A stretch of DNA of 61,969 nucleotides, the filler included, from Candidatus Woesearchaeota archaeon (lineage in GTDB: Archaea; Nanobdellota; Nanobdellia; Woesearchaeales; BM511): the NCBI GenBank assembly GCA_023266675.1. It is 5 parts of 5 records of this genome, joined end to end, with 100 filler letters (N's around TTAATTAATTAA, not from the genome) between each part and the next. Parts side by side here need not be neighbours in the genome. Positions count along the whole stretch, not along the records: positions 8,606 to 17,061 come from JAHFPP010000059.1; 4 more parts are not named here. The stretch is one strand, 5' to 3'. The position numbers and the translations under genes are program-made. The notes under the pieces are model-generated. The model ran no database searches. It was not told the origin of the DNA and saw nothing but the letters and a program-made list of their open reading frames with translations. Below, piece after piece: positions 2,107 to 32,326 of this stretch (position 1 is the stretch's first letter; the number at the start of each line of letters is the position of its first letter).

Positions 2107-2204
2107 GAGCCCGTAGCTTAGCCTGGTGGAGCACTCGACTGATATAGGAATTCGTTCCTACAGAGATCGAGCGGTCCGGTGTTCGAATCACCGCGGGCTC
2201 ACCA
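2107..2204 (+). tRNA. tRNA-Ile(GAT) with 21-nt intron at 37/38 (2145-2165), CCA encoded
   Basis: Acceptor GAGCCCG/CGGGCTC, anticodon stem CTCGA/TCGAG, GAT at 2141-2143, T arm CGGTG-TTCGAAT-CACCG, relaxed BHB intron with AGGAA-TTCG-TTCCT hairpin. Confidence 0.95.
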
Positions 2205-13549: not shown

Positions 13550-13804
13550 TTATTTATGATATTTAATCCACATCTTCTTGAAAAATTGCAAAGAAAGTGT
13601 CGACAATAAGAATCCTAATGTTGGAACTAGTGAGTTAATAAATGGTTTTGGCAGATTAGCGTAAAAAAAGAATAACACGATTACAATATATGTCAGTACA
13701 GCAATTATTAGTTTTCTAAACCAGCTTGTTTCCCATGATTTATCTAATTCAACTTTCTTGTTTCTTTCTTCAATAAACTCCACACGTTTAGTCAGGTCAG
13801 TCAT
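13550..13804 (-). CDS. Small membrane protein
   Basis: Two hydrophobic segments; coupled to the nspC stop. Confidence 0.7.
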   Translation of the reverse strand: MTDLTKRVEFIEERNKKVELDKSWETSWFRKLIIAVLTYIVIVLFFFYANLPKPFINSLVPTLGFLLSTLSLQFFKKMWIKYHK

Positions 13805-15003
13805 CCAAGCCTCTCCTTGAAATCTTTGTAGCCAAATTTCTTTACAAGTTTAATCTGACCTGATTTTTTGTAGTTGTATATTGATGGGAGTCCGACTCCG
13901 TTGAAAGTGTTATTTTTCACCATCGTGTAGATTGCCATGTTGCAGAATATAAGTTTTTGACCGACAACAAGAGGCTTTTCAAAAGAATAGTCGCCAATTA
14001 CGTCGCCAGATAAACATGTTGGTCCGCCAAGGCGGTAAGTGAACTTTTGTTTTCCTGGAGCGCTTGCCTCGATTATTGTTGGCCTGTAAGGCATCTCAAT
14101 TACATCAGGCACGTGATTTGATGCTGACATATCAAGTATCACAACATCAACTCCAAAACTCATCTTTTTTATGTCAATTACTGACGCGACAAGAAGACCT
14201 GCATTAAGCGCTACAGCTTCGCCTGGCTCAAGTATTACCTGTTTTTTGTATTTTTTCTTAAAGTCATTAACTAAAGTTACAAGCTTTTCAACATCGTAAT
14301 CGTTTCGAGTGATATGGTGTCCGCCGCCAAAATTAACCCATTTTATGTTTGGTAGAGAAATATATTCTCCGAATTTTTCTTCAACATGCTTTAAAACTCT
14401 TTCAAGCGTGTCTGAATTTTCTTCGCAGAGAACGTGAAAGTGAATTCCTGATATTATTGACAAATCCTTGTCTTTAAGCTCGTATGATTTTAGTCCAAAG
14501 CGTGACATCTTTCCAGCTGGGTTATACATGTCGCACTCTATCTCTGAATATTCAGGATTTATTCTTATTCCAAACTCTACATTCTTCGCCTTTTTCATTA
14601 ATGGCTTGAAGCGTTCAAGCTGTGAAAACGAGTTTAGTATTATGTGGTCTGAAATTTTTAGAAGTTGATTGAAATCCTTATCGCTGTACGCTGGTCCGTA
14701 GATGTGGATTTCCTTCTTGAATTCTTCGCGCCCAAGTTTTGCTTCAAAAATCCCTGATGCACATACGCCATCAAGATATTTTCTTATTAAGGGATAATAA
14801 TGAAAGCTTGAAAACCCTTTTTGAGCCAATAGAATCTTGCAGCCTGTTCTTTTTTTTACGCTTGCAAGAATTTTTAGATTTCTTTCAAGCGAATCCTCAT
14901 CAACGACGTAGCACGGCGTCTCAAGTTTATTCAAATTAAGCTTTCTGACTCTCTTTAAGTCATGCATTTCCCACGGCGGGATAAATATCTCCTTGTCGCT
15001 CAT
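13801..15003 (-). CDS. nspC: Carboxynorspermidine decarboxylase
   Basis: TPCYVVDE, LLAQKGFS (PLP Lys), HFHVLCE, NFGGGHHITR, EPGEA, CLSGD, YTMVKNNTFNG. Confidence 0.95.
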   Translation of the reverse strand: MSDKEIFIPPWEMHDLKRVRKLNLNKLETPCYVVDEDSLERNLKILASVKKRTGCKILLAQKGFSSFHYYPLIRKYLDGVCASGIFEAKLGREEFKKEIHIYGPAYSDKDFNQLLKISDHIILNSFSQLERFKPLMKKAKNVEFGIRINPEYSEIECDMYNPAGKMSRFGLKSYELKDKDLSIISGIHFHVLCEENSDTLERVLKHVEEKFGEYISLPNIKWVNFGGGHHITRNDYDVEKLVTLVNDFKKKYKKQVILEPGEAVALNAGLLVASVIDIKKMSFGVDVVILDMSASNHVPDVIEMPYRPTIIEASAPGKQKFTYRLGGPTCLSGDVIGDYSFEKPLVVGQKLIFCNMAIYTMVKNNTFNGVGLPSIYNYKKSGQIKLVKKFGYKDFKERLG

Positions 15004-15058
15004 TTAGATAACGTTATCGTCACTATTTTTATATATTTGTATTCTAATAAAATAAATG

Positions 15059-15171
15059 CGCCGAGGCCGGGAGTTTCACCCGAACACGTTAAGTGTTGCA
15101 GAATTTGAACCCGGAAGGCGTTAGCCAGAGGAGTTTCAAACCTCCACAATACCTAGTTATGTGACCTCGGC
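15059..15171 (-). tRNA. Class II (Ser-type body) tRNA with GAA at 34-36; 31-nt BHB intron at 59/60 (15073-15103)
   Basis: Acceptor GCCGAGG/CCTCGGC-G73, D stem ACA/TGT, anticodon arm GAGGT-TTGAAAC-TCCTC, V arm GGC-TAAC-GCC, T stem CCGGG/CCCGG, BHB helix TTCA/TGAA with 3-nt bulges. Confidence 0.88.
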
Positions 15172-15220
15172 ATCATAATGAAAATATAATTTTCAAACTT
15201 TACCTTTCGGCAAAGTATCG

Positions 15221-15400
15221 ACACAAATTTTATATACTCTAACACCATCATAAGCTTTGGAGTTTCAAACCAATACAATATCAGGTCATGTGACCTTTTT
15301 TCTTTTTTTAATTATGGAGAATCAGTTTATATACCTCACGCGTCCATGTCCAGTGGGTTTTTTATAGGTTTATTGTCAACAAATAGATGTCCAGTGAGGA
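15221..15400 (-). repeat. ~190-bp upstream module shared with the tRNA at 32092-32326
   Basis: ACACAAATTTTATATACT and TTTATATACCTCACGCGTCCATGTCC are identical at 32337 and 32449; TGTCCAGTG repeats. Confidence 0.85.
15259..15296 (-). pseudogene. Degenerate copy of the 5' half of the adjacent tRNA
   Basis: GGAGTTTCAAACCAATACAATATCAGGTCATGTGACCT vs tRNA GGAGTTTCAAACCTCCACAATACCTAGTTATGTGACCT. Confidence 0.75.
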
Positions 15401-32091: not shown

Positions 32092-32326
32092 CGCCGCGGC
32101 TGGGACTTCCACCAAACCTTTTAAGAAAAGGTTTAACAAAACAGTTCGGACTATTTCAAAAAAGAAATAGTCCTTAGCCTCGAGCGTCAACGGACGAAAC
32201 GGTTGTTTGAACCCAGAAGGCAGTTAAGCCAGCGAGGTGTCAAAAACTTATTTTTGAGCACGCAAAAAATTTAAAAAATTTTTAAGCGTTTCAGTTCGCC
32301 GTCATACCGACTTAGACGACCGCGGC
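32092..32326 (-). tRNA. Class II (Ser-type body) tRNA with GAA at 34-36; introns at 37/38 (~32238-32288) and 59/60 (32106-32205)
   Basis: Acceptor GCCGCGG/CCGCGGC-G73, D stem GTC/GAC, anticodon arm GCGAA-CTGAAA^C-CTCGC, V arm GGC-TTAACT-GCC, T stem CTGGG/CCCAG. The anticodon-intron boundary is ambiguous by about 1 nt. Confidence 0.82.

Follow-up and report, generated by a model that had tools for sequence, protein, structure and literature searches.

The window analysed here is a stretch of 61,969 nucleotides from a Candidatus Woesearchaeota archaeon (GenBank assembly GCA_023266675.1), in which contigs of a metagenome-assembled genome (MAG) are strung together with N spacers (352 N). The host genome, G000 below, comprises 83 contigs and 1.22 Mb at 34% G+C and is 95.9% complete by marker genes. 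On the minus strand of contig C31 lies a 113-nt gene whose sequence folds into a class II tRNA with a serine-type body and the phenylalanine anticodon GAA at positions 34–36 (Table 1). It shows what is expected of a cloverleaf, namely a 7-bp acceptor stem, D, anticodon and T arms, U8, A14, G18-G19, U33 and T54-Psi55-C56, together with a 3-bp D stem, G26, a 7/5 acceptor/T composition and discriminator G73. The anticodon arm has four Watson-Crick pairs, a U31/U39 mismatch and a 7-nt loop with A37. The predicted fold lies 5.1 standard deviations below those of 200 shuffled sequences, none of which equals it (z -5.1). An earlier reading made from the DNA alone (the sequence-only reading) had listed the acceptor stem, D stem, G26, variable arm, G73 and other features of this tRNA, as well as GAA at 34–36 with a 31:39 mismatch; our parse recovers all of them on the minus strand, and ARAGORN, once the intron described below is removed, reports the same anticodon. 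The insert in the T loop, the paralogs and wider family, and a partial copy of the tRNA upstream went unmentioned there.

The 5-bp T stem of the C31 gene closes across 38 nt, which correspond to a 7-nt T loop plus a 31-nt insert. The elements follow one another as T stem, TTCA, 3-nt bulge, inner helix, hairpin, return strand of the inner helix, TGAA, 3-nt bulge and 3' strand of the T stem, and the inner helix has 4 bp. The accessible text of PMC4090602 defines the archaeal bulge-helix-bulge (BHB) motif as a helix of 4 bp with a 3-nt bulge at either end, one on each strand, and includes 59/60 among the known positions of archaeal tRNA introns. Cleavage within the bulges would release a 31-nt intron from between positions 59 and 60 and leave TTCAAAT, a canonical T loop, in a mature class II tRNA of 82 nt. 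From its sequence, then, the insert is a BHB intron with predicted splicing. The genome encodes two homologs of the splicing endonuclease (PF01974, 99.4 and 96.1 bits). In all five paralogs compared (see below) the BHB is intact and the 4-bp TTCA/TGAA helix invariant, with introns of 29–32 nt. Many ordinary tRNA-Ser genes of related genomes also carry a BHB intron in the T loop at 59/60, so the intron is a trait of the lineage and not a peculiarity of the C31 gene.

This insert explains why general tRNA searches overlook the gene. ARAGORN makes no tRNA call on the unspliced C31 sequence, and calls tRNA-Phe(gaa) with a long variable arm after in-script removal of the intron. Rfam gives no match in the window at the gathering score, and at E values up to 10 only two chance-level matches to non-tRNA families; in a scan of the whole genome with the Rfam tRNA model (RF00005, cut-off 29 bits) the C31 gene is not among the matches. 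With the same model two of its paralogs pass (C57, 44.9 bits; C78, 30.7 bits) and a third falls below (C66, 20.0 bits). Our own covariance model scores the C31 gene at 117.9 bits.

Table 1. Positions of the features discussed (numbered along the window unless a contig is given)
Feature	Position	Strand	Remarks
Pre-tRNA gene, 113 nt (contig C31)	15059..15171	-	class II cloverleaf; 5' end 15171, discriminator G73 at 15059; CCA not encoded; from sequence, fold and paralog covariation
5' exon	15104..15171	-	acceptor 5' strand, D, anticodon and variable arms, T stem 5' strand, T-loop nt 54-59; from parse and BHB rule
Anticodon GAA (34-36)	15135..15137	-	in 7-nt loop U-U-G-A-A-A-C
Long variable arm	15115..15127	-	1 unpaired nt, 3-bp stem, 4-nt loop, 2 unpaired nt
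Predicted intron, 31 nt, at 59/60	15073..15103	-	full hBHBh' motif: T stem, TTCA/TGAA helix, bulges AAT and ACT, inner helix
3' exon	15059..15072	-	T60, T stem 3' strand, acceptor 3' strand, G73
TATA box 2	15228..15236		57 nt from tRNA 5' end; 22 nt from end of partial copy
Partial tRNA copy (nt 5-42)	15259..15296	-	82% match; homology block -125..-87
Remodelled GC hairpin; terminator-like site	15283-15296	+	with T tail
T-run, 13 nt	15297-15309	+	end of predicted antisense RNA
Predicted small antisense RNA, ~45 nt	15260..15309	+	from geometry
Promoter 1	15327..15396	-	TATA box 15334-15327; two CACTGGACA motifs (15355-15347, 15396-15388)
Segment between tRNA and TATA box 2	15172-15227	-	holds the 40-nt segment found otherwise only at C57
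Sixth paralog (C33)	32092..32326	-	own model 30.3 bits, partial match; same body, loop CTGAAAC, own upstream copy; upstream elements to ~32526
tRNA-Ile(GAU)	2107-2204	+	class I by parse
Decarboxylase-like gene	13801-15003	-	400 aa, just downstream of the tRNA
Canonical tRNA-Phe	G000:C77:755-861	-	

A similarity search of the genome combined with a hidden Markov model revealed that the C31 gene is one of at least six. Full copies are present on C66, C57, C34 and C78, the last clipped by the contig end, and a sixth lies on C33. All six have discriminator G, and the triplet at 34–36 is GAA in three (C31, loop TTGAAAC; C66 and C33, both CTGAAAC), GAU in two (C57, TTGATAC; C34, CTGATAC) and GAG in one (C78, TTGAGAC). 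When the introns are removed, ARAGORN calls all five full-length paralogs, each with a long variable arm, as Phe(gaa) twice, Ile(gat) twice and Leu(gag) once. Covariation among these five is strong: 98.5% of pair cells pair, 10 of the 27 pairs have changed on both sides, and double compensatory changes occur in all five helices, including one pair of the variable-arm helix, which stays paired throughout. None of 500 shuffles does as well, and offsetting the paired columns by 1–3 positions lowers pairing to 38–52%. The five full copies are selected structured RNAs and not decaying pseudogenes. The C66 copy has a perfect 5-bp anticodon stem with a 7-nt loop, so that GAA can be assigned to 34–36 whichever way the U/U mismatch of C31 is taken; the sequence-only reading had allowed for a loop presenting UGA in a shifted register, and C66 makes that shift unnecessary. 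We are accordingly confident that the C31 gene is a real tRNA of serine origin with GAA at 34–36.

The sixth copy is less regular. It has its own promoter, A-run and partial copy upstream, and is interrupted by an insert of about 50 nt after the anticodon loop and another of about 130 nt in the T loop. The latter holds a repeat (AAGGACTATTT ... AAATAGTCC ... AACTGTTTTGTT) that is also found upstream of other promoters in the genome and looks like a miniature inverted-repeat transposable element. Folding the ~50-nt insert of the anticodon arm gave no BHB, and either GAA or GAC is possible after processing; this copy may be degenerate. No conserved protein neighbour was found at the six loci.

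The sequence-only reading had also named an assembly error as an explanation. A Logan contig from DNA run X1 shows no difference from the window over 14700–15204, which speaks against such an error; the match is not independent support, as X1 may be the source sample itself. The assembly breaks at these repeated tRNA modules: C78 begins inside a paralog (at tRNA nt 4) and the Logan contig stops at 15204. With contigs ending inside or beside such modules, tRNA genes are probably under-assembled in this MAG, and other serine tRNA genes are probably among those left out.

The body of the C31 tRNA points to serine in several ways. Its acceptor and D arm resemble those of seven ordinary tRNA-Ser genes of relatives (anticodons UGA, GGA and GCU; 78–87% over the aligned stretches), and its variable arm is built like theirs, a single unpaired base preceding the stem and two following it. 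Together with G73 this bears out the serine-type body claimed in the sequence-only reading, and the comparison indicates that the body is descended from tRNA-Ser. The genome contains a single seryl-tRNA synthetase (SerRS; G000:C1), which has the arm-binding N-terminal coiled-coil domain, and the accessible parts of PMC5389517 and PMC7609411 describe SerRS as reading the long variable arm together with G73 while ignoring the anticodon. By analogy, the C31 tRNA is, by a small balance of probability, serylated. Its loop differs from the Ser(UGA) loop of relatives, CTTGAAA, by a shift of one base that brings the G and A of the serine anticodon to 34 and 35, and this shift is a plausible origin of the present anticodon.

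By its anticodon the molecule is not an ordinary tRNA-Ser, which would carry NGA or GCU: GAA stands at 34–36, and UGA appears only in the 33–35 register. Nor does it have the short variable loop, A73 and archaeal G37 of a tRNA-Phe, but a long variable arm, G73 and A37. Housekeeping tRNAs for both amino acids are encoded elsewhere. A canonical class I tRNA-Phe (loop CTGAAGA with GAA and G37; A73) is present on C77 and an ordinary tRNA-Ser(UGA) on C12, so that neither the sole tRNA-Phe nor the sole tRNA-Ser(UGA) of the genome can be the C31 gene, two alternatives that the sequence-only reading had raised. The C31 tRNA is therefore neither the housekeeping tRNA-Phe nor the housekeeping tRNA-Ser. 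Ordinary tRNA-Leu(GAG) and tRNA-Val(GAC) genes are found on C52 and C49. The tRNA-Phe on C77 is itself missed by ARAGORN, and carries a non-canonical insert of about 33 nt in the variable region, between the anticodon and T stems. A further irregular gene in the window, which parses as a tRNA-Ile(GAU) with A73, encoded CCA and an intron of about 21 nt after position 37, is labelled Tyr(ata) by ARAGORN, or Ser(aga) when an intron is allowed; Rfam scores it at 52.5 bits, and its BHB helix has only 3 good pairs.

The genetic code of the organism is standard for the codons concerned. We compared atpA and atpB (A and B subunits of the V-type ATPase), both in the window, with 16 homologs each and considered columns at least 80% conserved. 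All 21 TTY codons in these columns coincided with conserved Phe, 23 of 26 ATY codons with Ile, all 21 CTY codons with Leu and all 12 GTY codons with Val; no codon of the four types coincided with Ser. With TTY at conserved Phe and a canonical tRNA-Phe present, reassignment of UUY to serine is ruled out, as the sequence-only reading had argued for the genome as a whole. These codons are also frequent (UUY 45, AUY 44, CUY 37 and GUY 36 per 1000; about 160 for the four NUY boxes), so freely active serine-inserting decoders would touch about one position in six and be harmful.

To survey related genomes we built a covariance model from the five copies. Matches turned up in every one of 151 genomes of this order (3 of them flagged unpublished and contributing nothing beyond this tally), as expected of a model that also picks up ordinary tRNA-Ser genes. 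Our census covers 136 of the 757 matches, namely the best-scoring ones order-wide and all those of four chosen genomes, and reduces to 132 unique sequences from 57 genomes. Seventy-one of these have G73 and a serine anticodon, and 50 have G73, a 7-nt loop and a non-serine anticodon, G73 being part of the definition of both classes; of the rest, six with another discriminator were set aside and five have interrupted loops. The homologue search proposed in the sequence-only reading thus yields a family spread across the order, its 50 members coming from 23 of the 57 genomes, with up to a dozen in one of them (G112). Of two closed genomes, one (G019) has a single member and the other (G087) none.

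What unites the 50 is the middle base of the anticodon. A35 is present in 49 and U33 in 48, and positions 34 and 36 vary freely: GAU occurs 14 times, GAA 11, GAG nine, CAG four, GAC three, UAG, AAG and UAA twice each, and UAU, CAA and GUC once each. Since A35 pairs with the middle base of the codon, the shared property is a match to U-middle codons, those of Phe, Leu, Ile and Val. With only A35 members in its training set the model is slightly biased towards them, which tells somewhat against the rule; despite this bias, 71 genes with serine anticodons fall in the same score range, and there is only one other non-A35 anticodon.

Upstream of the C31 gene lies an arrangement that recurs at its paralogs. 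The partial copy of the tRNA includes a 13-nt exact match to the 5' strand of the anticodon stem, the loop and the first bases of the 3' strand, and its D-arm part has been remodelled into a new GC hairpin that forms, on the plus strand, a terminator-like site with a T tail. Promoter 1, about 130 nt upstream, faces both the copy and the tRNA; no other box is so located as to yield a full-length pre-tRNA. The 9-mer that it carries twice, CACTGGACA, occurs 35 times in the genome, often paired just upstream of a TATA box and before both RNA and protein genes; a promoter of this type also precedes a leaderless open reading frame on C9, and the motif is found before family members of other genomes (L039, L040, L046). 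It looks like the putative binding site of one regulator. TATA box 2 lies between the copy and the tRNA, and its extended motif occurs within the genome only at five paralog loci. Judged from the geometry, this box would fire away from the tRNA and produce a small RNA that starts about 24 nt from it, is complementary over 13 nt to tRNA nt 30–42, and ends in the hairpin and a 13-nt T-run. The transcript from promoter 1 would start in the A-run and be fully complementary to this small RNA.

All five loci of the host genome with upstream sequence have the same layout: CACTGGACA and a TATA box, 16 nt, an A-run, the partial copy, about 21 unrelated nt, TATA box 2 and the tRNA, the last two 17 or 57 nt apart. 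Each copy bears the anticodon of its own tRNA, and in five out of five its best match, by longest exact match and by duplex energy, is to its own tRNA. The layout is repeated at 25 loci of other genomes, where the segment copied is the acceptor and D arm, the D arm and variable arm, or the anticodon arm and variable arm. Spacing is informative here. In 29 of the 30 copy-bearing loci a TATA box follows the end of homology by 13–27 nt (median 21; 24 of 29 within 19–25), and the distance from that box to the tRNA ranges from 6 to 85 nt, with none of the 29 within 22–28. For comparison, a box can be recognised at 35 of 57 ordinary tRNA-Ser genes, at a median of 25 nt from +1 (31 of 35 within 22–28). 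By its position, therefore, TATA box 2 would fire into the copy, in the direction opposite to the tRNA; by eye, the A-rich bases that precede true promoters also sit on the side matching opposite-strand firing. The length from A-run to TATA box is roughly constant (median 55 nt). The spacing kept despite an unrelated spacer, the constant length, the way in which copy and tRNA change together and the new hairpin in the D-arm part argue, at the level of sequence, for a present function of the copy.

Some family members lack the copy. In this second promoter class (L042, L049, L050, L054, L057, L086-L088, L095-L107; for instance in G112 and G046) a palindrome TTCCG-N-AAA ... TT-N-CGGAAA is followed by a TATA box of the type ATATTAAGAAG, an A-rich stretch and then, canonically spaced, the tRNA, which in several cases has C at position 37. 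At some copy-bearing loci a palindromic promoter takes the first place, which suggests that the copy goes back to a tRNA gene that was duplicated and truncated. Other readings of the copy were considered and rejected. No conserved C or D boxes were seen by eye that would make it a C/D-box guide. A split, trans-spliced tRNA does not fit, as the A-run stands in place of the acceptor 5' strand and nothing is missing in cis from the downstream gene. Against the template and variable repeats of a diversity-generating retroelement, the positions at which copy and tRNA differ are not specific to A. As a separate observation, C31 and C57 alone have an extra, near-identical 40-nt segment between TATA box 2 and the tRNA, which in C31 forms an 8-bp hairpin with a GAAA loop and in C57 a less fully paired stem.

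Taken together, we propose that the C31 gene yields a spliced, serylated tRNA able to read UUY as serine, transcribed from a regulated distal promoter and opposed by a convergent anti-tRNA RNA; as a whole we regard this reading as about as probable as its negation. The splicing endonuclease would remove the 59/60 intron to give the 82-nt tRNA, SerRS would charge it through the long variable arm together with G73, and the product would bring serine to UUY codons. Given how frequent UUY and the other NUY codons are, free activity would be harmful and tight control is expected. One gate would be the sole correctly placed promoter with its repeated CACTGGACA sites, and a second the opposite-facing TATA box in the leader, giving an RNA of about 45 nt with complementarity to the anticodon arm and, at its end, a hairpin followed by a U-run. 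That the antisense RNA is real and acts on the tRNA is a possibility we put slightly short of even. A hairpin with a T-run is present on the opposite strand at 13 of 18 copy-bearing loci and on the tRNA strand at none of the 18, compared with 1 of 10 ordinary serine loci and none of 18 family members of the second promoter class; the copy-bearing group was defined by its A-run and copy, however, and this count is not independent of that definition.

That dependence is one of several points that weigh against the proposal. Promoter 1 would read through the copy as well, in the sense orientation. The one metatranscriptome from this sample (X2) contained almost no words of the locus, and nothing mapped to the stretch, tRNA or antisense. 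A first look found no partial copy at 10 ordinary loci, as if it were exclusive to the non-serine family, and an unbiased comparison overturned this: the upstream homology score is at least 22 at 28 of 54 non-serine loci and also at 18 of 71 ordinary tRNA-Ser loci. What remains specific to the family is the architecture of A-run, copy, 21-nt gap and TATA box. The ordinary cases comprise neighbouring tRNAs with a common T arm, truncated tandem tRNA-Ser genes and ten loci with the first 13–23 nt of the gene repeated upstream, in some of which the promoter is duplicated as well, around an insert of about 60 nt. The tRNA-Ser genes of the order may thus be hot spots for integration or duplication, and the C31 copy may have begun as such a footprint, or still be one. 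As for the tRNA itself, serylation is argued from identity rules of other organisms; the C31 arm has its U/U mismatch at 31:39; UGA stands at 33–35 in all six host copies; and position 37 is a pyrimidine in 12 of the 50 family members, something very rarely seen in tRNAs that decode. Lastly, our model finds only one ordinary tRNA-Ser in the assembly (UGA, on C12) and no tRNA-Ser(GCU), (GGA) or (CGA), so that of the inventory suggested in the sequence-only reading the tRNA-Phe(GAA) and tRNA-Ser(UGA) are present and the tRNA-Ser(GGA) is not found. AGY codons are used at 22 per 1000 with no tRNA-Ser(GCU) assembled, and the tRNA inventory is therefore incomplete.

The repeats before ordinary tRNA-Ser genes deserve a note of their own. 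They are found in relatives L099, L104, L105, L150, L152, L172, L175, L177, L186 and L188, 57–130 nt upstream of the gene, where they open a long hairpin with a complementary 3' arm. In L186 the promoter and the first 15 nt are duplicated around the ~60-nt insert, which has a motif in common with the insert of L175. These repeats may be integration scars or another class of small RNA.

Other explanations of the C31 gene account for part of these observations. The tRNA might be made and serylated and then serve off the ribosome, as a serine donor, sensor or decoy whose A35 loop is read by a partner protein or RNA. The pyrimidines at 37, together with C33 in some members, fit a poor decoder, and six copies in a 1.2-Mb genome with dedicated promoters and operator-like sites would suit such a role, which is nevertheless unlikely: there is no conserved protein neighbour at the six loci, the tertiary-fold nucleotides, U33 (48 of 50) and, in the C31 copy, a purine at 37 are all kept, and the common base is the middle one, as selection by codon reading would have it and as no known partner requires. 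Alternatively, the anticodon might decide the charging, by PheRS for C31 and by IleRS, LeuRS or ValRS for the paralogs, which would make these tRNAs odd extra isoacceptors with faithful translation or give them dual identity. Some loops in the family are indeed those of normal decoders of the same codons (CTGAAGA and TTCAGGA with G37; CTGATAA), and the A35 restriction would then be harmless. We consider this quite improbable: these tRNAs keep G73, whereas in the same genomes the canonical tRNAs for Phe, Ile and Leu have A73; compensatory changes preserve the Ser-type variable arm; and canonical isoacceptors are already there, spare tRNA genes being rarely retained in small archaeal genomes.

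A shifted register, in which U33-G34-A35 is the anticodon of an unusual tRNA-Ser(UGA) reading UCA, would turn several of the difficulties above to account: the UGA of all six host copies is followed by a variable position 36 (A, U or G), the 31:39 mismatch of C31 could open a 9-nt loop, UCA is the commonest serine codon (32 per 1000), a single ordinary tRNA-Ser is assembled, and some loops elsewhere have CGA at 33–35 (L040, L088). It seems to us very unlikely all the same. The anticodon arm is a perfect 5-bp stem with a 7-nt loop in C66 and in most relatives, 12 of the 50 (CAG, UAG, AAG, UAA, CAA and UAU) have no NGA at 33–35, the invariant U is at 33 and not at 32, and a normal tRNA-Ser(UGA) is present. 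Finally, these genes could be functionless, decaying duplicates left by mobile elements integrating into tRNA-Ser, with the copy as a displaced att-side fragment. Truncated copies and duplicated 5' ends are frequent at the tRNA-Ser loci of the order, the C33 copy has two large inserts, one with a genome repeat, and some complete genomes (G087) lack the family; against these stand the double compensatory changes in all five helices, the conservation of A35 and U33 while 34 and 36 vary, the BHB intact in five of five and the copy-to-TATA spacing of 19–25 nt in 24 of 29 loci despite differing spacers and copied segments, and we hold debris of this kind to be highly improbable.

If the proposed serine-inserting tRNA and its antisense RNA are both real, they might go together as an RNA-only module resembling a toxin-antitoxin or abortive-growth system, with the Ser-charged tRNA as toxin and the convergent ~45-nt anti-tRNA as antitoxin, an idea that we offer as rather unlikely. 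The antisense RNA would pair with the leader of the pre-tRNA and, in the mature tRNA, with the anticodon, D or variable arm; the A35 rule would give the most damaging substitutions; promoters with CACTGGACA or palindromic operators would time a proteome-wide mis-incorporation of serine; and modules would by multiplication have come to number from 6 to more than 12 per genome in this DPANN-type archaeal order.

The gene just downstream of the tRNA in the window is decarboxylase-like. Its best genome matches, at 51–54% identity, are in one Micrarchaeota MAG and several Campylobacterales MAGs, which hints at inter-domain transfer.

Natural tRNAs in which charging identity and anticodon disagree are rare, and bear on how codes change and on how mistranslation is tolerated or used. 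Those described here are archaeal, present in many copies and in many families of one order, follow an A35 rule and appear to be under dedicated control. If serylated and used, they would permit a regulated flooding of protein core positions with serine, which could act to brake growth, in defence or in response to stress; if their role is off the ribosome, they mark an unknown tRNA-dependent process. They also carry a warning for annotation, as standard tRNA finders miss such genes and, after splicing, label them Phe, Ile or Leu. In the literature, including the accessible parts of PMC7609411, PMC9499178, PMC4090602 and PMC5389517 (subscription journals not covered), we found no archaeal Ser-bodied tRNA with a Phe, Ile, Leu or Val anticodon, and no anti-tRNA gene or tRNA with its own antisense gene.

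The closest known molecules are the ordinary archaeal tRNA-Ser, among them those of the same order with introns at 59/60. They have in common with the C31 tRNA the sequence of acceptor and D arm, a D stem of 3 bp, G26, the geometry of the variable arm, G73 and the BHB intron of the T loop. They differ in having NGA or GCU where C31 has GAA, and the C31 gene is set apart by its multiple copies, its own promoter architecture and the partial copy upstream. Bacterial allo-tRNAs (Mukai et al.), as the accessible text of PMC5389517 describes them, likewise combine a long variable arm and G73 with non-serine anticodons, for example those of Leu, and allo-tRNAs with Leu anticodons arrested growth of E. 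coli, which the authors ascribe to serine at Leu codons. Serine identity is thus joined to a foreign anticodon in both cases, but allo-tRNAs have 8/4 or 9/3 acceptor/T compositions and are bacterial or phage-borne, whereas the C31 tRNA is archaeal, contains an intron and has the 7/5 composition, by which an allo-tRNA is ruled out. The C31 family is moreover limited to A35 anticodons and has a linked antisense-like gene.

Yeasts of the CUG clade have a Ser-bodied tRNA, tRNA-Ser(CAG), that reads a Leu codon and is thought to have been born of a one-base change of register in the loop of a Ser anticodon; the C31 loop is likewise shifted by one base from the UGA loop of its relatives. There, in a eukaryote, one codon was reassigned, while here the code is standard and canonical decoders coexist. 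The nematode nev-tRNAs and the tRNA-ProX of Streptomyces are natural tRNAs whose body identity and anticodon disagree and which exist beside a normal set; they involve other amino acids and lineages than the C31 tRNA, and we know of no linked antisense gene or A35 rule described for them. For the upstream module the nearest parallel is found among type I toxin-antitoxin systems such as hok/sok, in which convergent promoters produce a potentially harmful gene's transcript and a short structured antisense RNA overlapping its 5' part. The C31 module would share with these its predicted convergent promoters and a predicted antisense RNA ending in a hairpin and U-run, and has multiple copies at patchily distributed loci as they do. 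It differs in that the harmful product would be a tRNA and not a peptide, and in that the predicted antisense RNA also matches the mature product; an RNA-only module of this kind, if true, would be categorically new.

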